This document shows positions 33,772-43,705 of a stretch of DNA of 64,000 nt, piece by piece. This DNA comes from Candidatus Sysuiplasma jiujiangense. Lineage in GTDB: Archaea; Thermoplasmatota; Thermoplasmata; Sysuiplasmatales; Sysuiplasmataceae. How positions within the stretch are numbered: the first letter of the stretch is position 1; each line of letters starts with the position of its first letter. A program made the translations under genes and the position numbers. Location: assembly GCA_019721075.1 (NCBI GenBank), contig JAHEAD010000008.1:1-64000 (forward strand), in the 5' to 3' direction. The notes below the pieces were generated by a model. It worked only from the letters and a program-made list of their open reading frames with translations. It made no database searches and had not been told where the DNA came from.

Positions 33772-34404
33772 ATGAAACTGAATGAACTGAAATCCAAGCT
33801 TGAAATGCTTTTGCCGATTGCCGATCCTTCGCCATCTCTGGAGCAATATTCAACCCCCGTAAATGCTGCATCGGCAATACTTTATCATGCGGCAATGAGC
33901 GGCGATATTGAAGGAAGGAAAATCGCAGATCTGGGTTGCGGTAACGGAATATTTTCAATAGGTTGCGCACTGTTGGGAGCATACCGTACAATAGGCGCTG
34001 ATGTGAGTCCGGCATGCATTAAAACTTCGAAGGAGAATGCAGCCAGAATCCTGGATAGTGCCTTACTGAAAAAAGTACACTTCAAAAAAGCCAGCATCCT
34101 CGAGATAAAAGGCAGATTTGACACGGTATTCCAGAATCCGCCTTTCGGCTCACAGTCCAGAAATGCAGACATTCCGTTCATAAAGAAGGCACTTGAACTT
34201 GCAGATGTGGTGTATACAATTCATATTTCAGCAACAAGGGCATTTATAGAGGAAAAGATAGCGGAATACGGGGGGAGGATTGAGTTTTCGGCAGAATTCG
34301 ATTACAGCATGCCGAGAATGTTCAAATATCACACGGATGACAGGCGAAAATTCCGTCTAATCCTTTATAAAGCAGTGAAGAATAACAAACAACGAGATAG
34401 ATGA
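33772..34404 (+). CDS. METTL5-family N6-adenine RNA methyltransferase
   Basis: LEQYSTP, DLGCGNG, NPPFG; adjacent to csl4. Confidence 0.88.
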   Translation: MKLNELKSKLEMLLPIADPSPSLEQYSTPVNAASAILYHAAMSGDIEGRKIADLGCGNGIFSIGCALLGAYRTIGADVSPACIKTSKENAARILDSALLKKVHFKKASILEIKGRFDTVFQNPPFGSQSRNADIPFIKKALELADVVYTIHISATRAFIEEKIAEYGGRIEFSAEFDYSMPRMFKYHTDDRRKFRLILYKAVKNNKQRDR

Positions 34405-34961
34405 AAGGAAAATTGGTCGTCCCAGGCGACGTGGTAGCAATTGCGGAAGAGTATTCACCTGGAAAGGGAACATACGAATCCGATGGAAAAATTATAGCGA
34501 GCGAGACCGGCGAGCTCATTCTTGACAGCAGAAACCATGCGGCAACAGTGTCACCTTTTAATCCGGTGGCTGAACCAAAGAAGAAGGATATTGTTTATGC
34601 CACAGTATCAGATGTGAAGAGTTCCATGGCGATATGCGAGCTAATATCGATTGAAGGAAAGGAGAGGTCTGTGACTGGAAACAGGGATGCTACGCTCCAC
34701 GTGTCGACAATATCACAGCAATATGTTGAGTCGGTGGGACAGGCAGTACGAACAGGGGACATAATAAGGGCTGAGGTCATACAGTCGAGTCCTTCCATTC
34801 AACTCAGCACAGTCAATGCACATATGGGCGTGGTGGCAGCATATTGCAGCCGCTGTCATTCAATGATGAGGCTGAAGGATGGCCATCTTTACTGCGATGA
34901 ATGCGAACGATCGGAAAAGCGTAAAATTGCCGACGACTACGGCTCCGCTGCATTCAAATAA
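34401..34961 (+). CDS. csl4: Exosome RNA-binding subunit Csl4
   Basis: VVPGD..EEY.PGKGTYE, S1 domain, CSRC...CDEC..EKRKIA. Confidence 0.92.
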   Translation: MKGKLVVPGDVVAIAEEYSPGKGTYESDGKIIASETGELILDSRNHAATVSPFNPVAEPKKKDIVYATVSDVKSSMAICELISIEGKERSVTGNRDATLHVSTISQQYVESVGQAVRTGDIIRAEVIQSSPSIQLSTVNAHMGVVAAYCSRCHSMMRLKDGHLYCDECERSEKRKIADDYGSAAFK

Positions 34962-35030
34962 TGTCGTGCCTGCGGAAACAGAAAGGGTTAAAGCCTCAGT
35001 GTATTAGAGTATTTCGAGGGTAAATAACAC

Positions 35031-35240
35031 ATGCCCAAGGACAAGGCACAAAGAAAGAATCGTGTGCGAGGCAGAGAACAGGAGCAGCTGCGTAAAGAAA
35101 TAGACTCCCTGCGTGTTGAAATCAAGGAAATGAAGGAAATTGTTAACATGCTGCTCAACATGGTGATAGATACAGAGGAAGAAGAATACCCGGGCATGCA
35201 GTTCCCGGATTTTGACGAGCGTTACAGTCAGAACAATTGA
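35031..35240 (+). CDS. Small coiled-coil acidic hypothetical protein
   Basis: GAGGG SD; heptad pattern; co-oriented between csl4 and glyA. Confidence 0.7.
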   Translation: MPKDKAQRKNRVRGREQEQLRKEIDSLRVEIKEMKEIVNMLLNMVIDTEEEEYPGMQFPDFDERYSQNN

Positions 35241-35249
35241 GGCGCCACT

Positions 35250-36449
35250 TTGAGACATGACATAATCGAGCTTGCTAAGAAGCATGATCAATGGCGAAAT
35301 TCCAGCTGCATCAATTTACAGCCGTCCGAAAACATACTGAGTCCTGCCGTGAGGAGGCTGCTCGCGTCTGACATGGCGAGCCGGTACACATTGAGAAGTA
35401 ATGAATTCATAGGGAATGGAGGTGCGTCCAACAGCTACGGCGGAACAAAATACATGGACGAGATCGAGAGGCGTGGAGAGGAAACTGCTTCAAAGCTTTT
35501 TGGCGCAAGGACATCGCTCAAACCGCTGTCGGGACACATTGCCTCGCTCCTGATGATTGCAAGCGTGTGCAGGAAAGGGGACACAATAATGGCTGTGTCT
35601 TCAGCGGACGGCGGATACGACGGATACGGTCAGTCATACATACCTGACATGTTCTCACTGAAATTCAGACCGTTACAGTTTGACAGGGAGATATGGAACG
35701 TTAAAGGGGAGGAAACTGCCGAAGACATTAGAAGGTACAAACCGAAACTGGTTGTGCTCGGGCAGAGCTTTATACTTTTCCCTTACGACATCGGTCCAAT
35801 CAGTGACGCCTGCAGGGAGGAAGGCACCGTGCTTGCCTATGATGCATCTCATGTGCTTGGTCTCGTGGCAGGCGGAAGATTCCAGAGACCGATACAGGAG
35901 AGGTGCGACATTCTCATTGGAAGTACTCATAAGAGCTTCCCCGGCCCGCAGGGGGGTATCTTCGCAACAAACGACGATGGCATCTGGAAGTCGTTCGTGT
36001 GGAACTGCACCTGGCGGCTCATAGACAATGCTCACTGGAACAGAATTGCCGCTCTTTCACAGGCCATGGAGGAAATGAGAAGGCATGCAAGCAATTACGC
36101 TGCCAGGATAGAGGCCAATACTCAGGCGCTGGGCAGGAGTCTTGGCGAAGAAGGTGTCGTCTGCAAGTTCAGCGGAATTGGCTATTCCAGGTCACACCAG
36201 CTGCATCTTGACTCTGATGCGCTGGCAAGCATGGATCTGTCGTTAGCAAAGCTGAATGAAGAACTTGAAAAAAATGATATCATAGTCGACACGACAGGGA
36301 GAATAGGAACTTCCGAAGTGTCCAGGCTGGGCATGGGTGCCAGGGAGATGCGGTTAATATCCGCCCTTGTCGGAGGCGCGCTCAGGGGCGAAAATGTGAA
36401 AGCGGAAGCAAACAGATTGAGAAAAAGATTTGATGTGCACTACTTATGA
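35250..36449 (+). CDS. glyA: Serine hydroxymethyltransferase, archaeal type
   Basis: INLQPSEN, YGGT, YDASHVLGL, GSTHKSFPGPQGG, RIGTSE. Confidence 0.88.
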   Translation: MRHDIIELAKKHDQWRNSSCINLQPSENILSPAVRRLLASDMASRYTLRSNEFIGNGGASNSYGGTKYMDEIERRGEETASKLFGARTSLKPLSGHIASLLMIASVCRKGDTIMAVSSADGGYDGYGQSYIPDMFSLKFRPLQFDREIWNVKGEETAEDIRRYKPKLVVLGQSFILFPYDIGPISDACREEGTVLAYDASHVLGLVAGGRFQRPIQERCDILIGSTHKSFPGPQGGIFATNDDGIWKSFVWNCTWRLIDNAHWNRIAALSQAMEEMRRHASNYAARIEANTQALGRSLGEEGVVCKFSGIGYSRSHQLHLDSDALASMDLSLAKLNEELEKNDIIVDTTGRIGTSEVSRLGMGAREMRLISALVGGALRGENVKAEANRLRKRFDVHYL

Positions 36450-36973
36450 TGCAAGGTGACAAATCAAAACCGTTTGTACTGGATACCAGCGCAATGTATA
36501 ACGGCACGGATTATCCAGCGGACGCAATCCTCTTTTCCACGCCGAAGGTTGTAAGCGAGGTTAAACATGTATACCGTTCCAGCAGGGCAGAACTCTTTGT
36601 AGACACACGATTGAAAATCATTGAGCCGGCTGCGCGCAGTGTTGAAAAGGTCGTTGAAGTCGCAAAGAAGAACGGAGATATCGCCAGGCTGTCACCTGCA
36701 GACATTGAGGTACTTTCACTTGCTTATGAACTCAACGCAGTCGTAATAACCGAAGACTATTCAATTCAGAACACTGCTTCGGGACTGGGAGTCGAATTCC
36801 GCTCACTCTACATACCCCGGATTGCAAGCTATATCGAGTGGACACTCGTATGTGAATCGTGCAGGAGAGAATCGTGCAGCAGGGAAGAAAGGGTTTGCAG
36901 AATTTGCGGGGGGAGAATGATAACGGTCAAAAAGAAAAGCAGACCAATTTCAGATTCACGCAGGGGTCAGTGA
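36446..36973 (+). CDS. nob1: Nob1 PIN-domain endonuclease
   Basis: VLDTSA, LSPADIEVLSLA, TEDYSIQN, C-terminal CxxC...CxxC. Confidence 0.9.
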   Translation: MMQGDKSKPFVLDTSAMYNGTDYPADAILFSTPKVVSEVKHVYRSSRAELFVDTRLKIIEPAARSVEKVVEVAKKNGDIARLSPADIEVLSLAYELNAVVITEDYSIQNTASGLGVEFRSLYIPRIASYIEWTLVCESCRRESCSREERVCRICGGRMITVKKKSRPISDSRRGQ

Positions 36974-38481
36974 TCCTTGCCTGCCTTGGAATAGGTTACA
37001 ACCGCAACCAGCGATAATGCAATGATTGACGCGGCGACGAAGCTGCCGGATTCAAAGAACGGAGCATACGGCATATCGTGCGCGACGTATGGCGGCTGAT
37101 GCAACTGGCTCAGGTTGAAATTTGAAGAGCCTGTTCTTGAATAAGGCAGTGAGGAAAAGGGAAATTGCGGTTGGACCGGAAATGTCCCTGACAGCGAAAC
37201 CGATGGCAATGCAGAGATGGGAAAATGTAGCGATGCCGGGATCTGGAGGTCTGCAAAATTGACATTTATGGGAGGTCTCGGCTGAGCCGCATGAAGGGAA
37301 TAGAATGTGAACATATCCAGAGGCACATCCGACAGGGAGACAAATCTGTTCAATGGCGGCATGTTCCAGTTGTAATCGATGAACGCCAAGAGCGAAGCGT
37401 GATTCATCGGTGTGTTCGAAATATAATCTTCCTTTGCATACGGGGAAACAAGGATCAGGGGAACCCTGAAGCCAAGCTGCTGGCCATCAATGGATGGCGG
37501 GGGGACATTGTCATAAAATCCTCCACCCTCGTCATAATTTATAAACACAGCCGTGCTGTTCCATTCAGGGCTGAACATTATCTTCTGCAGAATAAAAGTG
37601 AGCCACAGCTCACCGGCAAGCATGTTGTCTGAAGGATGCTGGCTGTAGCCTGTCACGCCGAGTCCTATAGGTTCGAGATAGCTGACAGCCGGCAGTGTGT
37701 TGTTCTGAAGTTCGCCGAAGAAGGAGGTCCAGCTCCGTATGTTTGAAGAATATGCTGAAACACCGTAGACATAGTCGAGGATGATTGTTCCGAGCGTGGG
37801 GTCATAGACGTAGTAGCCCCATGAAACATGGTATCTGTTGAGTTCTGAGAATATCGTTTCCGAATACGGGATGTACGGAGGTGGGCCATAGTCGTTTATC
37901 ACGGGGGAATAGCCTGCAATGCCGTACAGCCTGTTTGGCATTGTCGCGGTCAGCGCACTTGAAAAGTACATGTCACCTATTGCATACTGCTCCGCAATAT
38001 CCCACTCTATTGCGAGCTGGGAGGAAGTGTAGTATGTCAGCGACTGTACACCGGAATTCAGTCTGAATCCGTTCATTTTACCGCCGTTCCAGTCGAGATG
38101 GTAGGCAGTATACCCTTCAACAGGATCAGGGGTAGAAAACACACCTGGCCGGACCGCGGTGAGGTTGGAAAGGCCGCCGGCTGTCAGCAGGTTATCGGGC
38201 ACCGTGAGCTGGGAGGTGATGTTTTCGGCTGAAGAATTGCCGCCCGAAGGGTATGAACCGAAGATGTTGTCGAAACTGTGATTCTCCATTGTTATCAGGA
38301 TGACATGCCGTATTGGTGTTGTGGTTGAGGAGGATGCACCCGCAGCTGAGGGCAGAAACGCCGTAAGGACGAGTGATGCAATGAGTAATGAAGAAGCGCA
38401 TGCCGCAACACGTGAACGGGCCTCCCGCCTGCCGCCGCTGACAGCGCTTCGGACCGCAGCACAGACAGAAGTCTGCCTAAT
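36967..38481 (-). CDS. Exported phosphoesterase (phospholipase C/acid phosphatase family) with C-terminal membrane anchor
   Basis: PIRHVILITMENHSFDN, TMPNR, SQHP, YDEGGGFYD, GFRVP; the frame extends upstream of ATG 38289 to ATT 38481. Confidence 0.85.
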   Translation of the reverse strand: MRQTSVCAAVRSAVSGGRREARSRVAACASSLLIASLVLTAFLPSAAGASSSTTTPIRHVILITMENHSFDNIFGSYPSGGNSSAENITSQLTVPDNLLTAGGLSNLTAVRPGVFSTPDPVEGYTAYHLDWNGGKMNGFRLNSGVQSLTYYTSSQLAIEWDIAEQYAIGDMYFSSALTATMPNRLYGIAGYSPVINDYGPPPYIPYSETIFSELNRYHVSWGYYVYDPTLGTIILDYVYGVSAYSSNIRSWTSFFGELQNNTLPAVSYLEPIGLGVTGYSQHPSDNMLAGELWLTFILQKIMFSPEWNSTAVFINYDEGGGFYDNVPPPSIDGQQLGFRVPLILVSPYAKEDYISNTPMNHASLLAFIDYNWNMPPLNRFVSLSDVPLDMFTFYSLHAAQPRPPINVNFADLQIPASLHFPISALPSVSLSGTFPVQPQFPFSSLPYSRTGSSNFNLSQLHQPPYVAHDMPYAPFFESGSFVAASIIALSLVAVVTYSKAGKDH

Positions 38482-39043
38482 GCACTACACCTCTTCCAGT
38501 TTTAATCAGCGAGCCAATAAACAAAATAAAAAGCAGCGTGAATTCGAACACGACAGGCGCAAGAATTATCAGAGGCATATATCTGTAGAACAGTATGAGA
38601 TATACAGAGAGGAGCACAGCAACGACAACCAGATTCTCCAGTCCCATGAATATCGAATTTACAGACAGAACTTTTCCGATTCCTAAGGATTTGAGATAGA
38701 CAGAGGAAGTGAAAAGTAATCCCGACATAGTCAGAAACGAAAATACCATGGTAACGTTGTCGGCAATAACCGGATTGTTATAAGAATAGTAGAAAACCGG
38801 AATGACGCAGACAACTGTTATAAGAAGCGAGTACAAGATGCGGGCCGGCGTTTTGCAGAAGTAGACAGATGCTGCAAACGGAAAGACCAGGGAACCGGTT
38901 ATGATGCCGCCTAGCACGTAGGGGATGGCCGTAGCCGTTCCGACTGCATAGATGAAACCGGAGAGGTAAATCACAGCCAGGGAAAGTGTGGCTCCCCAGA
39001 CCGTATAGAATAAATTTAAAATGACCTTTTTGCCTTTCAACAT
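38477..39043 (-). CDS. Hypothetical six-TM membrane protein
   Basis: Highly hydrophobic; TATA-like CTTATAAA about 30 nt upstream; overlaps the start of the phosphoesterase gene. Confidence 0.7.
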   Translation of the reverse strand: MLKGKKVILNLFYTVWGATLSLAVIYLSGFIYAVGTATAIPYVLGGIITGSLVFPFAASVYFCKTPARILYSLLITVVCVIPVFYYSYNNPVIADNVTMVFSFLTMSGLLFTSSVYLKSLGIGKVLSVNSIFMGLENLVVVAVLLSVYLILFYRYMPLIILAPVVFEFTLLFILFIGSLIKTGRGVVH

Positions 39044-39112
39044 TTCACGGGCGGGAGAATCAGCATCTCCGTTTTATAAGCATCTTTCCAGCAATGATTA
39101 CCAGTAAATTTG

Positions 39113-39143
39113 TAACAACAAATTTTGTAGTAATATGTTTATA
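39113..39143 (+). promoter_or_regulatory. Imperfect palindrome plus TATA box upstream of ribB
   Basis: TAACAACAAA-T-TTTGTAGTAA (39113-39133) followed by TTTATA (39138-39143). Confidence 0.5.
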
Positions 39144-39162
39144 TCCTGCCTGATTAGCAGAT

Positions 39163-39861
39163 ATGGTGAAAATGATACACGAACCACTGGAAAGCCAGAT
39201 ATTGGCAGCAGCAGAGGAGCTGAAAGCGGGAAACATCATATTTGTCCATGACTCATCTTCGAGAGAGAACGAGGTAGACATGGTTGCGTCGGCCTATATG
39301 TGCACCCCTGAGATGATTTCAACAATGAGGGAGAGAGCAGGAGGATTAATTTGCTCTGCAATAGGGAACGAGGTTGCGGCCAACATACATCTGCCATTCA
39401 TGCATGAAATACTCGAACTTTCACATGAAAAATATCCGGATCTCACTTCCATGATAGAGACAAGAACGCCATACGGCGGCAGACCTGCCTTCTCCATATC
39501 CGTCAATCACAGGGATGTCTTCACCGGTGTCAGTGACGGCGAAAGATGTATGACAATCAGGCAGATAGGCAATGTTGCGAAACTCGCGGCCGAAGGGAGA
39601 GATGCGAACAGTGAGTTCTATTCAAAGCTCAAATCTCCCGGCCATGTGCCTCTTCTGATTGAGGCAAGGAATTCGCTCGCGGAGAGACGCGGGCACACAG
39701 AACTTTCAATCAGGCTCGCCAGGATTGCTGGACTGCCACCGGCTACAGTGGTCTGCGAGATGCTTGACTCCCGCACGCACAAATCACTTGATCTGGAGAA
39801 AGCAAGAAGAATTGCCGGTGAACTGAAGCTTCCGATCATCGAGGGCGAGATGCTTCAATGA
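39163..39861 (+). CDS. ribB: 3,4-dihydroxy-2-butanone 4-phosphate synthase, archaeal type
   Basis: DSSSRENEVD, AGGLIC, FTGVSDGER, SPGHV, RRGHTE, VCEML. Confidence 0.93.
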   Translation: MVKMIHEPLESQILAAAEELKAGNIIFVHDSSSRENEVDMVASAYMCTPEMISTMRERAGGLICSAIGNEVAANIHLPFMHEILELSHEKYPDLTSMIETRTPYGGRPAFSISVNHRDVFTGVSDGERCMTIRQIGNVAKLAAEGRDANSEFYSKLKSPGHVPLLIEARNSLAERRGHTELSIRLARIAGLPPATVVCEMLDSRTHKSLDLEKARRIAGELKLPIIEGEMLQ

Positions 39862-39871
39862 GGAAAAATTG

Positions 39872-40342
39872 ATGAAAGGGAAGCGGGAAGATATCCGGGC
39901 AGCAATTGTCTGCTCGACGTTTAATGAAGACATAACCTCCAGGATGTTTGAGGCTGCGGTAAGGGAATGCGACCGCCAGCATATGGAGGTAAAGGCATCA
40001 TGCAGGATTCCCGGAGTTTTCGACATGCCACTCTTCGTGGACACTCTACTCCTGAGGAGGGATGTTGACTGTGCCATTACCCTTGGGGCAGTAATAAAGG
40101 GCGAAACTGACCATGATGACCTCATTGCAAGAACTACAGCTGCTGCAATTGTGAACATTGCACTGAAGCGGGGCAAGCCGGTGGCCCTGGGTATTACCGG
40201 CCCGGGCGTGTCATGGGAGCAGGCGGAGGCGAGGGCAGAGGAATATGCCATCAGGGCGACAGCGGCAGCAGCTGAAATGGTCAGAACACTGAGAACCATG
40301 CCGCACGCAGAAGACAGAGGCATGATGAAGACAAACGGTTGA
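39872..40342 (+). CDS. ribH: 6,7-dimethyl-8-ribityllumazine synthase
   Basis: FNEDIT, PGVFDMP, LGAVIKGETDHD, GITGPG. Confidence 0.93.
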   Translation: MKGKREDIRAAIVCSTFNEDITSRMFEAAVRECDRQHMEVKASCRIPGVFDMPLFVDTLLLRRDVDCAITLGAVIKGETDHDDLIARTTAAAIVNIALKRGKPVALGITGPGVSWEQAEARAEEYAIRATAAAAEMVRTLRTMPHAEDRGMMKTNG

Positions 40343-40364
40343 AACGGGGACTGAGATTCTGGAC

Positions 40365-41630
40365 GTGGAGAAACCGCAGGAAAGTATACTGATACAAAAC
40401 ACAACTGTGCTTGAGGGGTGTGAACTGAAACTTCTCGAATCTGTTGACATCTTCATTGATGGCGGCACTATAACGGATGTAGCCGAATCAGGCAACGCAG
40501 ATTATTCAAAGAACGGGATAGGCAGAGTAATCGACGGCCGCGGAACTGTTGTCATCCCGGGATTCGTAAATGCACATGTGCACCTAAATGATGCACCGCT
40601 GAAGGATGCAGGCGCAGGAATGACGCTTGAGGAGATGGTGCATCCGGTCAGCGGGCTGAAGCGGTCTGGCATGCTGAAGTACAGTATGGAAGAGAGACTG
40701 AGGAGCGTTTCTTCGGCCCTGGCAGAAATGGCGCAATCCGGCATAACAGGTGCCATAGATTTTCATGAGGAGGATTACAGCATCATAGCACGATTGAAGG
40801 CATCGCTGCCGTCTGCTTCGCCTGCGGTACAGTTTCTTGGAAGACCGGCTGTCTATTTTTCGGAAAAGGAGATAGTGGAAAACCTGATGCTTGAAACTGA
40901 CGAAATTGACGAGGGCAGACAAAGGCTCGAGCCTTTTGACGGAATAGCACTGAGCGGCTGCAACGAATACAGCGACGGAGCCATGGAACAGATACACGGA
41001 ATGGCCAAAGGAAGGATGACCGGAATACATGCCGCCGAAACCATAAGATCTGACAGACTATCAAGGAAAATGACAGGGGAGAGCGAAGTAAAGAGGGCAA
41101 TCGAGCATCTGAAGCCTGATTTTTTTGTACACCTCACGCATGCTGATGATGATGATCTCCGCATGATCTCAAAACAGGCAATAGGATCTGTAATCTGCCC
41201 GAGATCAAATGCGCTGTTTGGAGCCGGCATCCCGCCCGTCGGGAAGCTCATGGCATTGAAAATACCGGTTGCGCTGGGAACAGACAACCTCATGCTGAAT
41301 TCCACGGACATGTTCAGGGAAATGGATTTCGCGTCAAAGGTGGCAGATATTGCTTCGGGTGAGCCTGGGACTGTCGAAGACGTCGAAGTGCTCAAAATGG
41401 CGACGCTAAACGGTGCAAACCTGATGAGCAGGGGCAGAAGTCATGGATGCATAGAGGCGGGAGGCAAGGCAGATCTCGTAGTGATCGATCTTAAATCAGA
41501 AAGAATGGAAGGAACGAACGATGTTGTGTCGGCAATCGTTCACAGAGCCGGCATCAGCGATATCATGTATACAGTAAAGGCGGGTAAAATTATTTACGAA
41601 AGACATTGCAGGGGAAGGGGGGTGGGGTGA
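40365..41630 (+). CDS. Amidohydrolase-superfamily metal-dependent deaminase
   Basis: PGFVNAHVHLND, DFHE, GIHAAE, VHLTH, CPRSN, LGTDN. Confidence 0.85.
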   Translation: MEKPQESILIQNTTVLEGCELKLLESVDIFIDGGTITDVAESGNADYSKNGIGRVIDGRGTVVIPGFVNAHVHLNDAPLKDAGAGMTLEEMVHPVSGLKRSGMLKYSMEERLRSVSSALAEMAQSGITGAIDFHEEDYSIIARLKASLPSASPAVQFLGRPAVYFSEKEIVENLMLETDEIDEGRQRLEPFDGIALSGCNEYSDGAMEQIHGMAKGRMTGIHAAETIRSDRLSRKMTGESEVKRAIEHLKPDFFVHLTHADDDDLRMISKQAIGSVICPRSNALFGAGIPPVGKLMALKIPVALGTDNLMLNSTDMFREMDFASKVADIASGEPGTVEDVEVLKMATLNGANLMSRGRSHGCIEAGGKADLVVIDLKSERMEGTNDVVSAIVHRAGISDIMYTVKAGKIIYERHCRGRGVG

Positions 41631-42230
41631 ATGTTCACAGGCATCGTGGAAGGAACTGCGATCGTAGTCGGTGCATATCGGCGGGAAGGAAACATGCGCC
41701 TGAGCGTGAGATTCAGGAGCAATGGAAGGGCCTACAGAACAGGAGAGAGCATCGCCATAAACGGTGCATGCCTCACTGCGGCTTCAGTCAGGAAGGATAC
41801 AGTTTCATTCGACGTGATTGCCGAAACACTCAGAAAGACGAATCTGGGGGAGATCACAAAGGGCGACGTGGTAAACTTTGAAAGGAGTATGAGAAGTGCG
41901 GACCTGATTGGAGGACATCTCGTCGCCGGTCACATAGACGGAACCGGGAAAATATCGGAGATAGAGAATGAGGGCGGCTCTGTCCGGATGACAGTCCGGG
42001 TCCAGAAGAATATAGGCTCGATGATTTCAGAGAAGGGATTCGTTGCCGTTGACGGCGTAAGCCTCACTCCCGCGGATGTTTCAGAGAGCAGATTCAGCCT
42101 GTATCTAATTCCGGAAACCAGAAGGAGGACCACGTTTGGCGTAAGGGAAGTAGGAGACAGGGTAAATATTGAAATTGACATATTTGCGAAATACATAAAA
42201 AAGTTTGTAGACGTCCGGATGAACACGTAA
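41631..42230 (+). CDS. ribE: Riboflavin synthase, bacterial alpha-type
   Basis: MFTGIVE, GESIAINGACLT, GGHLVAGHID, KGFVAVDGVSLT, VNIEID. Confidence 0.93.
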   Translation: MFTGIVEGTAIVVGAYRREGNMRLSVRFRSNGRAYRTGESIAINGACLTAASVRKDTVSFDVIAETLRKTNLGEITKGDVVNFERSMRSADLIGGHLVAGHIDGTGKISEIENEGGSVRMTVRVQKNIGSMISEKGFVAVDGVSLTPADVSESRFSLYLIPETRRRTTFGVREVGDRVNIEIDIFAKYIKKFVDVRMNT

Positions 42231-42388
42231 ATCAGCCTGCGGTTGGGCCTGGGGATAGGGTGTCCTTGCATTCCGGCAGCACAAAAAGGAACGCGGACGG
42301 TGATTTGCCAGGGTCCGGCTGTCAATATTATCATATTATGAACTAAGATGGCAAACTTAAATACTGGAGCATGCGACTTTTTATCCAA

Positions 42389-43705
42389 ATGGCGTACGAC
42401 ATAGAGTTTGGCTGCAGGGCGCTGATAAACGTTATTGTCTCGAGGGAAACGAGACAGCGAATGGCAGAGGGAAATATACAAAAATTGCCAGAAAAAAGGC
42501 TGCTGGAATATATAAACTCACTAATAGATCTGGGATGGGTAAAAGAGGAAAGAGGCGACAAGAAAGATTCAGATTATGTTGTGTACGCATTTACGGAAAA
42601 GGGAAGAAGAATATATGAGAATCCATCGGAACTCCTGAACCTGTCGGATGCAGAGCAGGAACATGTTTCCTTGCTCAGGAGACTGGATGCGCTGAAGAGG
42701 GACGATTCAATTTCGATGATGCCCCAGACACTCATGGCACTTTCTGATCTCTGCCTGGGCAATGGAAGGTATGACAGCGCACTCATGTATGCAATGGATT
42801 TGCACAAAAGAGCGGAGGAACTCAAAAGCACTTTTTTTGTCGGTGAAGCCTCGATACTGATGGGGAGGGTGGAGAATGCCAGGGGAGAACTTGAATCATC
42901 GCTGAAATATTTCATAAACGCAACTGACGCATTCAACAGGATAGGTGAGGTATCCAGGGAGGCTGACAGTCTGAGATATGCAGGTGGCGTCTTGTTGAAA
43001 ATGGGAGATTACAAGCAGGCCATGATGATGTTTGAGCAGAGCAAAGACAAGTTCTTCCACATCAGGCACATGATGGGAGTTGCCAAAGCTAAGGCTAACC
43101 TTGGCATACTTCATTCTCTGACGAAGAATTACGATACAGCGGAGAACTACTGGAAGAATGCGCTTGAATTTTTTGAGGCTCTTGAGGATAAAGAGAGTCA
43201 GACAAAGATATTGAATAACCTTGGCGCGATGCTTATAATGACAAAGAAATATGATGAGGCAGTAAATTATCTGAGAAAAGCAATAACTATCTCAAGAGAA
43301 GATAAAAACAAATATTCAGAATGCATAGGTATTCTCAATTTCGCCTATGCAAATGCTAAACTCGGCAAGTATGAAATTGCAAGGCAGGCTGTTGACTCAA
43401 TTAATAATGCACTCAAAGAGGGATTTGACACTTATCTTCTCGCATACAATGAACTTGTAATGGCAATTTACACAACCTACAGAGGAAGCTGGAACGAAGC
43501 AGAAAAAAGATTCCTTGCGGCCATTAGATTTGCGACCACTTCAGGGAATGCAGAACTCATTTCTGAATGCCATGAAGAGTACGGCAGAGCACTTATGCAA
43601 AAAAATGAGCGTGAAAGGGCCGCGACTGAATTTACGGCATCAGTCTCGGTTTCGGAAAGCATCGCTATTACTGAACTTAGAAAAGGTTTGTCAAACGGCA
43701 CATAG
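42389..43705 (+). CDS. Winged-helix plus tetratricopeptide-repeat protein
   Basis: LLEYINSLIDLGWV...YAFTEKGR wHTH signature followed by multiple TPR units (ANLGILH, LNNLGAML, A..Y..KA). Confidence 0.8.
   Translation: MAYDIEFGCRALINVIVSRETRQRMAEGNIQKLPEKRLLEYINSLIDLGWVKEERGDKKDSDYVVYAFTEKGRRIYENPSELLNLSDAEQEHVSLLRRLDALKRDDSISMMPQTLMALSDLCLGNGRYDSALMYAMDLHKRAEELKSTFFVGEASILMGRVENARGELESSLKYFINATDAFNRIGEVSREADSLRYAGGVLLKMGDYKQAMMMFEQSKDKFFHIRHMMGVAKAKANLGILHSLTKNYDTAENYWKNALEFFEALEDKESQTKILNNLGAMLIMTKKYDEAVNYLRKAITISREDKNKYSECIGILNFAYANAKLGKYEIARQAVDSINNALKEGFDTYLLAYNELVMAIYTTYRGSWNEAEKRFLAAIRFATTSGNAELISECHEEYGRALMQKNERERAATEFTASVSVSESIAITELRKGLSNGT

Follow-up and report, generated by a model that had tools for sequence, protein, structure and literature searches.

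Archaea already have a named candidate for the deamination step of riboflavin synthesis. In the SEED riboflavin subsystem, the predicted pyrimidine deaminase of archaea goes under the name 'PyrD' (Osterman, Overbeek and Rodionov 2010; Rodionova et al. 2017, PMC5397151), and its locus tags include MJ0699, HVO_2483, Nmar_1613, and PTO0711. Its activity was a prediction in the relevant sections of PMC5397151 (2017) and was still so in those of PMC8305020 (2021); an experimental test of a PyrD-family deaminase was not found in the literature searched. The first-pass annotation of the DNA described here singled out an amidohydrolase gene within a riboflavin operon as a possible archaeal pyrimidine deaminase. 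Its premise, that this enzyme has not been firmly assigned in archaea, agrees with the sections of PMC5397151 and PMC8305020 that deal with the step, but the candidate family had already been named PyrD. The deaminase idea is thus a rediscovery, the role having been proposed for the family in 2010 and again in 2017.

Other described enzymes resemble this protein in reaction type or in fold. The RibD/RibG and Rib2 deaminases (EC 3.5.4.26/Rib2 reaction) remove a 2-amino group by means of metal-activated water, the same type of reaction as is proposed here, and the fungal Rib2 substrate carries the same ribityl side chain (PMC8256712). Their cytidine-deaminase fold (PF00383, with HxE and PCxxC motifs) is nevertheless unrelated to that of the amidohydrolase, and any relation would be functional only; on sequence grounds, the amidohydrolase would have replaced the RibD deaminase domain non-orthologously. 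The solved COG0402 enzymes include MTA/SAH and adenosine deaminases (4f0r, 4gbd, and TM0936), an isocytosine/8-oxoguanine deaminase (7ww2), guanine deaminases (6ohb and 2i9u), and atrazine chlorohydrolase (4v1x). They have the (beta/alpha)8 fold, N-terminal beta-sandwich, and catalytic residues in common with our protein but differ widely in sequence, and the family studied here has conserved pocket residues of its own.

Organization of the operon

The window, i.e., the whole stretch of DNA that was analyzed, comprises 64,000 nucleotides of a Candidatus Sysuiplasma jiujiangense contig. Within it, ribB, ribH, the amidohydrolase gene, and ribE lie head to tail with intergenic gaps of 7, 22, and 0 bases (Table 1), and both the ORF calls and the family matches bear out the tight co-orientation that had been described. 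The amidohydrolase ORF begins with GTG. Its TGA (41628-41630) directly touches the ribE ATG at 41631, just as the first-pass annotation had it; the junction, GGGGTGGGGTGAATGTTC, reads TGAATG. A ribE Shine-Dalgarno sequence had also been placed within the amidohydrolase gene, at its 3' end, and a purine-rich GGGGTG/GGTGA run is indeed seen there. Divergent from ribB is a gene for a 188-aa membrane protein, which has only two homologue clusters and no Pfam family; matches to it in the protein atlas were uninformative.

Table 1. Features of the riboflavin operon and its upstream region (window coordinates).
Feature	Position	Strand	Description and evidence
Conserved promoter element (24-bp block + TATA-like box)	39110-39143	+	Alignment of three ribB upstream regions
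ribB	39163-39861	+	232 aa; PF00926 169.7 bits; TIGR00506 184 bits (cut-off 177.45)
ribH, 6,7-dimethyl-8-ribityllumazine synthase	39869-40342	+	157 aa; PF00885 115.5 bits; TIGR00114 111.8 (cut-off 84.6)
Amidohydrolase, nucleobase-deaminase type, PRK07213-like, 'PyrD' candidate family	40365-41630	+	421 aa; PF01979 117.5 bits
ribE, bacterial/eukaryotic-type riboflavin synthase	41631-42230	+	199 aa; PF00677 153.9 bits; NF006767 210.9 (cut-off 155)

Alignment of the sequences upstream of ribB in the window and in two relatives with the same gene order (L005 and L057) revealed a 24-bp block, TTGTAACAACAAnnTTTGTAGTAA (39110-39133), that is invariant but for two positions and is followed by a TATA-like TTTATA at 39138-39143. 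The remaining spacer is poorly conserved in the same alignment, and the element is likely the operator and TATA box of the rib operon. One half of the block, AGTAA, is similar to the Thermoplasmata RbkR operator given in the supplement to PMC5397151, but the other half is not. The RbkR palindrome TTACT-N8-AGTAA matched 14 times in the window versus 15.06 expected by chance; one match, at 39098-39115 in the ribB spacer, has two mismatches and was discarded as evidence in view of this chance-level count. The block found by alignment differs from it in sequence. An RbkR-like protein is encoded on contig 34 of the genome. Because the TATA-like box lies only ~20 nt upstream of the ATG at 39163, the true start of ribB may be the ATG at 39172, which would make the mRNA leaderless.

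Motifs and predicted fold of the amidohydrolase

The HxH, HxxE, H, and D motifs recognized in the first-pass annotation correspond to NAHVH (H71 and H73), GIHAAE (H222 and E225), VH (H256), and GTDN (D307), and all six residues are invariant in the 56/56 family members aligned. In the one-metal deaminase subgroup of amidohydrolases, HxH follows strand 1, HxxE follows strand 5, and the H and D follow strands 6 and 8, respectively. The AlphaFold model (pLDDT 90.2, pTM 0.91) has eight strand-helix units forming the (beta/alpha)8 barrel, together with an N-terminal beta-sandwich, and places each catalytic residue at the end of its expected strand. The best Foldseek matches (4gbd, 4v1x, 4f0r, 7ww2/8is4, 1p1m, and guanine deaminases such as 6ohb; TM 0.78-0.84) are deaminases or dechlorinases of purine, pyrimidine, and triazine rings. 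Profile E-values against COG0402 enzymes in the PDB reach 2.6e-46, although the protein shares just 17-23% sequence identity with the solved deaminases; a PDB sequence search returned no solved structure from within the family, the best matches being other COG0402 enzymes. Pfam matches were limited to PF01979, PF07969, and, weakly, PF00962, and PF00383 was not among them. Sequence and model together place the protein in the cytosine/guanine/adenosine-deaminase subgroup of amidohydrolases, with a predicted mononuclear metal site.

Among named families, the protein is closest to NF005552 (PRK07213, a 'chlorohydrolase' equivalog); its 284.6 bits fall 9.4 short of the cut-off of 294, and the next family scores 129.7. 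The same cut-off is missed by 95 of the 97 matches from the same phylum, including rib-clustered copies in two genomes from the same class as the window (G063 and G073), and it therefore takes in less than the whole PyrD family. Public names of the relatives are generic ('cytosine/adenosine deaminase-related', 'chlorohydrolase'). Seven residues conserved specifically within the family (D76, K99, F133, E135, R160, N308, and M310) differ in the genome's own COG0402 paralogue; in the model they are located either in the loop that follows strand 1 or where strands of the barrel end C-terminally, on what would be the substrate face, and D76, K99, E135, R160, and N308 may contact the substrate and its phosphate.

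Comparison with proteins of the Nitrososphaeria operons by phmmer gave E-values of 1e-62 to 1e-78. In the phylogenetic tree, a long branch parts all 56 family rows from the 5'-deoxyadenosine-deaminase-like paralogue of the genome. The window protein falls in a separate branch of seven sequences (SH-aLRT 93), set apart from a 28-member clade of its own phylum, and its orthology with the other family members is therefore putative.

Riboflavin pathway genes in the genome

The assembly searched comprises 2.29 Mb in 55 contigs and is 97.2% complete. The absence of ribD, reported initially for the window, extends to the whole assembly: a search for a RibD deaminase domain, proposed in the first-pass annotation as a check on its reading, found none, and at E <= 1e-45 there was no RibD match. 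The sole PF00383 match in the genome is a 163-aa protein on contig 1 that scores 36.1 bits on RibD; it is dCMP-deaminase/ComEB-like, has unrelated neighbor genes, and was rejected as an alternative deaminase. Rejected likewise was the second COG0402 paralogue, which resembles 5'-deoxyadenosine/MTA deaminases (PRK06380, 498.2 bits; PRK07228, 318.8 bits) and scores no higher than 102.5 bits on NF005552; the genome thus already provides for that role. Contig 23 encodes GTP cyclohydrolase II (RibA, 218.6 bits) and a stand-alone reductase of the archaeal type (ArfC; TIGR01508, 206.6 bits versus a cut-off of 186.45). GTP cyclohydrolase III was not found in the assembly.

Distribution and gene neighborhoods of the family

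Among 151 genomes of the same phylum, 97 carry the amidohydrolase family (E <= 1e-40) and 32 a bifunctional RibD (E <= 1e-45), and none carries both; the two are mutually exclusive in this sample. RibH is present in 148 of the 151, and the family is also absent from the two genomes of the same class (G078 and G136) that are without RibH. At these thresholds, 22 genomes have neither the family nor RibD, and 20 of them have RibH; five of the 22 were checked, yielding three sub-threshold matches (1.8e-40, 1.3e-35, and 1.3e-32) and two weak ones. In a set of 151 Thermoproteota genomes, the stand-alone reductase was detected in 54 and the family in 35, all 35 with the reductase and none with a bifunctional RibD above cut-off. 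The other 19 reductase-bearing Thermoproteota lack the family, and five that were checked gave weak matches only (1e-13 to 1e-27). For the five Archaeoglobales in the table of PMC5397151, a reductase is given, whereas PyrD and RibD are both missing; some archaea must therefore use another deaminase solution.

Conservation of the gene neighborhood, a further check that the first-pass annotation had named, was found at most of the loci retrieved. At least one same-strand rib gene is present at 74 of 80 loci encoding an amidohydrolase relative (Nitrososphaerota 68/68, Thermoproteota 3/3, Thermoplasmatota 2/2, and Bathyarchaeota 1/2). No rib neighbor was seen at the loci from four Chloroflexota, one Spirochaetota, and one Bathyarchaeon, and one Chloroflexia copy lies within a sugar-utilization-like locus; the tie to riboflavin thus does not hold throughout the family. 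At least three rib gene orders are represented. The order ribB-ribH-amidohydrolase-ribE is that of the window, L005, and L057; ribE-ribB-ribH-arfA-amidohydrolase-arfC, with domains confirmed, occurs in Nitrososphaeria; and ribH-[gap]-ribB-amidohydrolase with a divergent arfC occurs in G063 and G073. Linkage depends on the lineage: a rib neighbor was seen within 1.5-kb flanks for none of the 29 best same-phylum matches, and in only 2 of 12 regions when the flanks were 7-8 kb. PMC5397151 includes a single Methanomassiliicoccales genome, in which PyrD (H729_04910) is distant in number from the rib tags (H729_03695-03710).

By gene position, the window amidohydrolase family is PyrD. In a Nitrosopumilus genome, the genes for GTP cyclohydrolase III and the reductase flank a relative that scores 335.8 bits on NF005552; in the table of PMC5397151 this slot is occupied by Nmar_1613, between Nmar_1614 and Nmar_1612, and the gene order in G063 and G073 mirrors PTO0714-PTO0710 of the same paper. 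The window protein is homologous to the slot protein, clusters with rib genes, and comes from a genome that has the reductase and no RibD; in both cases the same function is proposed, on the same grounds of clustering and co-occurrence. It differs from the published members in length (421 aa versus ~340-400 aa), in its sub-cut-off NCBIfam score, and in its seven-sequence branch, and its gene order with bacterial-type RibA and RibE is absent from the operon listings in the supplement to PMC5397151.

Proposed function and alternatives

Every computational check that the first-pass annotation proposed favors reading the amidohydrolase as the probable deaminase of the riboflavin pathway, a function that is predicted from sequence, model, and gene context. 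Its substrate is probably 2,5-diamino-6-ribitylamino-4(3H)-pyrimidinone 5'-phosphate. RibA would supply 2,5-diamino-6-ribosylamino-4(3H)-pyrimidinone 5'-phosphate, the side chain of which ArfC would reduce from ribosyl to ribityl, presumably before deamination. The amidohydrolase would then hydrolyze the 2-amino group to give 5-amino-6-ribitylaminouracil 5'-phosphate; after dephosphorylation, RibH would condense the product with that of RibB, and RibE would form riboflavin. In the active site, a water bound to the predicted metal would be held by H71, H73, H222, and D307, and, activated via H256 and E225 of the HAAE motif, would attack the pyrimidinone at C2, in the manner of guanine and cytosine deaminases. 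The amidohydrolase gene would be co-transcribed with ribB, ribH, and ribE, and translational coupling is probable.

The order of reduction and deamination might instead be bacterial, the enzyme acting on the ribosyl intermediate before the reductase and standing in for the RibD domain rather than for Rib2. The reductase, however, belongs to the archaeal/fungal equivalog and scores above its cut-off, the Nitrososphaeria relatives are placed between arfA and arfC, and reduction by the TIGR01508 family precedes deamination in Methanocaldococcus jannaschii, according to PMC5397151. These points make the bacterial order unlikely, even though the pathway here starts with a bacterial-type RibA and ends with a bacterial-type RibE, the genome uses neither GTP cyclohydrolase III nor the archaeal RibC, the window clade stands apart from the phylum's main clade, and side-chain specificity is not fixed by sequence. 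A broader scenario is also unlikely: a separate deep branch may travel as a self-contained ribB-ribH-deaminase-ribE cassette with bacterial-type RibA and RibE, having replaced the usual copy of the phylum, with a possible ribosyl preference (i.e., the bacterial order) and a clade-specific 24-bp operator unlike the published RbkR sites.

It is quite improbable that the enzyme is a salvage or detoxifying deaminase of a different 2-amino- or 6-amino-heterocycle (guanine, 8-oxoguanine, isocytosine, a pterin, or 5'-deoxyadenosine/MTA) and that its location among rib genes is accidental or merely co-regulatory. Rib linkage recurs in three gene orders across phyla, the 97 genomes with the family do not overlap the 32 with bifunctional RibD, and genomes without RibH (G078 and G136) lack the family too; the protein shares little sequence identity with the solved deaminases, and the genome has a separate 5'-deoxyadenosine/MTA-deaminase-like paralogue. 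Against this stand the heterocycles used by the nearest solved structures, which are of just such a kind, the generic public names, the many main-clade members of the phylum without rib linkage, and the Chloroflexia member in a riboflavin-unrelated locus. The amidohydrolase superfamily is chemically versatile, so that another hydrolysis in the pathway, either dephosphorylation of 5-amino-6-ribitylaminouracil 5'-phosphate or the formamide hydrolysis of ArfB, might also be considered. Here the HxxE motif and one-metal ligands are the signature of the deaminase subgroup, and the top structural matches are all deaminases or dechlorinases. GTP cyclohydrolase II is used, and III was not found, so no formamide hydrolase is needed; a separate ArfB is listed for Nitrososphaeria in the table of PMC5397151. 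Even with the archaeal phosphatase step unassigned in the supplement to PMC8305020, we regard such a role as very improbable.

Significance

Among the catalytic steps of riboflavin synthesis in archaea, the pyrimidine deaminase, together with the phosphatase, is the last to lack an experimentally assigned enzyme, and the same deamination lies on the shared route to the F420 chromophore. Conceptually, the window adds little to the PyrD proposal; it contributes a third, independent operon arrangement, to which the present analysis adds the pattern of mutual exclusion with RibD over 151 genomes and a list of family-specific pocket residues. If the predicted function is true, a cytidine-deaminase-fold enzyme would have undergone clean non-orthologous replacement by a TIM-barrel enzyme, and thousands of archaeal genes now called 'chlorohydrolase', 'cytosine deaminase', or 'amidohydrolase family protein' could be renamed.

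The rib operon and the riboflavin pathway of the host genome

The amidohydrolase lies third of four co-oriented genes, ribB-ribH-amidohydrolase-ribE, as the first-pass annotation had described, and the Pfam and NCBIfam profile matches from which gene identities were taken agree with that order (see the table). PF00962 scored 23.7 bits on the amidohydrolase, which is under the Pfam cut-off for that model. At the junction, GGGGTGGGGTGAATG, no base separates the amidohydrolase stop codon from the start codon of ribE, and a purine-rich stretch resembling a Shine-Dalgarno sequence falls within the amidohydrolase gene; both details had been noted earlier, and the two genes may well be translationally coupled.

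Features of the rib operon and its upstream flank, with pathway genes elsewhere in the host genome
Feature	Position	Strand	Description
Divergent gene upstream of ribB	38477-39043	-	188 aa, several hydrophobic segments
Conserved block and TATA-like element 5' of ribB	39110-39143		24-bp TTGTAACAACAAnnTTTGTAGTAA, then TTTATA; from alignment with L005 and L057
ribB	39163-39861	+	232 aa; PF00926, 169.7 bits; TIGR00506, 184 bits (cut-off 177.45)
ribH	39869-40342	+	157 aa; PF00885, 115.5 bits; TIGR00114, 111.8 (cut-off 84.6)
Amidohydrolase	40365-41630	+	421 aa, GTG start; PF01979, 117.5 bits; PF07969, 69.3 bits
ribE, bacterial/eukaryotic-type riboflavin synthase	41631-42230	+	199 aa; PF00677, 153.9 bits; NF006767, 210.9 (cut-off 155)
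RibA, GTP cyclohydrolase II	contig 23		218.6 bits
Stand-alone reductase			220 aa; passes archaeal equivalog TIGR01508, 206.6 (cut-off 186.45)
Riboflavin kinase, CTP-dependent			221-aa frame

The assembly comprises 55 contigs and 2.29 Mb and is 97.2% complete; no GTP cyclohydrolase III was found in it. The first-pass annotation had reported no ribD in the window, and the rest of the genome likewise yielded no RibD deaminase domain (no TIGR00326 match at E <= 1e-45). The sole PF00383 match in the genome, a 163-aa protein flanked by a peptidase-like gene on one side and thiolase-like genes on the other, was rejected as a RibD deaminase, as it resembles ComEB/dCMP deaminase (85.6 bits) and scored only 36.1 bits on RibD. 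Because RibA, the reductase, and the kinase were found and the RibD deaminase domain was not, exactly one catalytic step of the pathway is left without an enzyme; one unassigned deaminase-type enzyme, the amidohydrolase, sits inside the rib operon.

Enzyme type, fold, and conserved residues

The best NCBIfam model for the amidohydrolase is NF005552 (PRK07213, "chlorohydrolase"), at 284.6 bits slightly below the 294-bit cut-off; the second-best family scored 129.7 bits. The only other NF005552 match in the genome (102.5 bits) is a 5'-deoxyadenosine/MTA-deaminase-like paralogue (PRK06380, 498.2 bits; PRK07228, 318.8 bits). An AlphaFold model built with 15 homologues (mean pLDDT 90.2, pTM 0.91) was compared with the PDB using Foldseek, which returned solely COG0402-type enzymes (TM 0.78-0.84, 17-23% identity): adenosine and MTA/SAH deaminases (4gbd, 4dyk, 4f0r, TM0936), atrazine and triazine hydrolases, isocytosine/8-oxoguanine deaminase (7ww2, 8is4), and guanine deaminases. 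Searching PDB sequences by profile turned up no closer relative (best E = 2.6e-46, over partial length), and the family is therefore without a solved structure.

The HxH, HxxE, H, and D motifs seen in the first pass are all present, as H71-x-H73, G-I-H222-A-A-E225, H256, and D307, and these six catalytic residues are invariant across 56 aligned family members drawn from four archaeal groups and bacteria. Also invariant in this alignment are D76, K99, F133, G193, R280, G305, N308, and M310, and nearly so are P94, G97, E135, R160, C278, P279, and E319. At several of these positions the paralogue encoded by this genome has another residue (M at 76, D at 99, Y at 135, E at 160, S at 308, and T at 310); from the secondary structure of the model, the differing residues follow barrel strands 1, 2, 3, and 8 or sit in the loop after strand 1, and would lie on the substrate face. 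K99 and R160 might serve to bind a phosphate.

Relatives, their neighbourhoods, and their distribution

A word-based protein search with the amidohydrolase scored 8000 candidates and gave 1387 proteins at E <= 0.001; among the 120 matches listed, functional names were generic, and the few names bearing an organism were all archaeal (Methanomassiliicoccales, Bathyarchaeia, Nitrososphaera, Thermoproteota). In species-representative genomes, a scan confirmed 538 stretches; ORFs of the best 80 of these were screened using RibB, RibH, and RibE from the window, plus ArfC (the stand-alone archaeal-type reductase) and RibA from the same genome, as queries. At least one same-strand rib gene was found in 74 of these 80 loci: 68/68 in Nitrososphaerota, 3/3 in Thermoproteota, 2/2 in Thermoplasmatota, 1/2 in Bathyarchaeota, 0/4 in Chloroflexota, and 0/1 in Spirochaetota. 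The most frequent order, at 54 loci, was RibE-RibB-RibH-[one gene]-amidohydrolase-ArfC; in one Nitrosopumilus locus, the intervening gene is GTP cyclohydrolase III by Pfam, with RibD_C as the flanking gene. Conserved rib linkage is thus borne out, but its strength depends on lineage, being strong in some and absent in others, since no rib neighbours were found in 29 loci from a sample of the window's phylum (1.5-kb flanks), and wider regions showed them in only 2 of 12.

That sample comprised 151 genomes at least 85% complete. RibH occurred in 148, the amidohydrolase family (E <= 1e-40) in 97, and bifunctional RibD, counted when the match began at profile position 1, in 32; comparison of the lists gave no genome with both family and RibD. 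RibD was limited to four families of the phylum (9/11, 1/1, 2/2, and 20/20 genomes), in whose genomes no amidohydrolase family member was found at E <= 1e-40. Two genomes of the window's class without RibH (G078 and G136) also lack the family. Neither enzyme was detected at these thresholds in 22 genomes; of five examined, three had matches just below threshold (1.8e-40, 1.3e-35, and 1.3e-32) and two had weak matches only. Among 151 Thermoproteota genomes, the family occurred in 35 and the stand-alone reductase in 54, including all 35 with the family, the two genes often being adjacent; none had bifunctional RibD over the cut-off. Five of the 19 with the reductase and without the family were examined and gave weak matches only (1e-13 to 1e-27). 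All these counts are patterns rather than statistics because related genomes are not independent.

A Chloroflexia copy (L062:1862-10980) follows genes for a GntR regulator, an ABC solute-binding protein, and two permeases, and precedes those for a zinc alcohol dehydrogenase, an FGGY sugar kinase, and a DeoC-type aldolase; RibD gave no match in that genome at E <= 1e-20. This suggests that the bacterial branch may have a different, catabolic role.

Probable promoter region and flanking genes

The 24-bp block and TTTATA upstream of ribB are kept in two Thermoplasmata assemblies, L005 and L057, the remaining spacer not being conserved, and are probably the operator and TATA box of the operon. Likeness to the published RbkR site (PMC5397151 supplement) is limited to the block's AGTAA half. 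The riboflavin kinase of this genome, in a 221-aa frame (G000:C34:30576-30935), is of RbkR size. The 188-aa divergent protein matched no Pfam family and had only two homologue clusters in a large protein search; its positional counterparts in L005 and L057 are 33-34% identical, and our guess is a transporter tied to flavin metabolism.

Both assemblies share the window's gene order and flanking genes, with large neighbours at 58-64% identity, and the entire rib-operon neighbourhood is syntenic within the window's clade. Upstream, window 34000-39000 and L057:800-4600 match in gene order and orientation at 60-64% identity (proteins of 399, 175, and, on the opposite strand, 440 aa). Downstream of ribE lies a TPR-repeat protein (window 42371-43705; L005:4971-6299, 58% identity); a shorter, unrelated-looking TPR protein adjoins ribE in a Nitrosopumilus genome (L012:2768-3472), which may be coincidence. 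DNA near-identical to window 39000-42400 occurs in 20 metagenome runs, which belong to six studies with the labels mine drainage, mine tailings, or sediment; the assembly may derive from five of these runs. No RNA runs were among the 20 listed.

Relation to PyrD and proposed function

Rodionova et al. (2017, PMC5397151) state that Archaea apparently lack orthologues of the RibD deaminase domain. For Thaumarchaeota their supplement gives the operon ribB-ribH-ribA-pyrD-ribD and for Sulfolobales ribB-ribC-ribH-arfA-pyrD, with PyrD tags including MJ0699, HVO_2483, Nmar_1613, PTO0711, and H729_04910. Nmar_1617 to Nmar_1612 (RibE, RibB, RibH, ArfA, PyrD, ArfC) agree at every gene with the Nitrosopumilus order seen here, in which the PyrD slot is occupied by an amidohydrolase scoring 335.8 bits on NF005552, and PTO0714 to PTO0710 (RibH, RibC, RibB, PyrD, ArfC) match the order in G063 and G073, both from the window's class. 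By gene order, PyrD therefore corresponds to the window's amidohydrolase family, and the deaminase reading is a rediscovery of a published predicted assignment. HVO_2483 was still listed as a prediction in 2021 by Pfeiffer and Dyall-Smith (PMC8305020), and no experimental test of PyrD-family function was found in the openly accessible full-text literature. The five Archaeoglobales rows of the supplementary table (PMC5397151) list the reductase and neither PyrD nor RibD; with the 19 Thermoproteota genomes that have the reductase and no clear family member, they suggest that some archaea may have yet another solution for this step.

The first-pass proposal that the amidohydrolase deaminates a riboflavin-pathway pyrimidine is well supported computationally by operon, pathway gap, rib linkage, and RibD exclusion; adding fold and catalytic residues, we consider this function likely, the substrate being presumably the pathway intermediate. 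Steps would run from RibA through ArfC, the amidohydrolase, and a phosphatase to RibH, which would also use the RibB product, and then RibE. Guanine and cytosine deaminases would be the model for the chemistry: H71, H73, H222, and D307 would bind one metal, and water activated via H256 and E225 would attack C2 of the 2-amino-4-oxopyrimidine. The reductase type, together with a passage in PMC5397151 on Methanocaldococcus jannaschii, where the reactions are described as running in reverse order, points to a ribityl rather than a ribosyl substrate.

A quick maximum-likelihood tree was built from 57 rows; its root is uncertain because the genome's own paralogue, on a long branch, was the single distant outgroup. 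Six sequences, all from assemblies of Thermoplasmata and Methanomassiliicoccales, join the window's copy in one group (SH-aLRT 93). The remaining 49 rows form another (SH-aLRT 96), which includes Nitrososphaeria and Bathyarchaeia operon copies, bacterial copies, and a 28-member clade of the window's phylum (SH-aLRT 100), a type of which no copy was found in the window's genome. The window contributes a divergent clade to the family, as well as a third operon arrangement.
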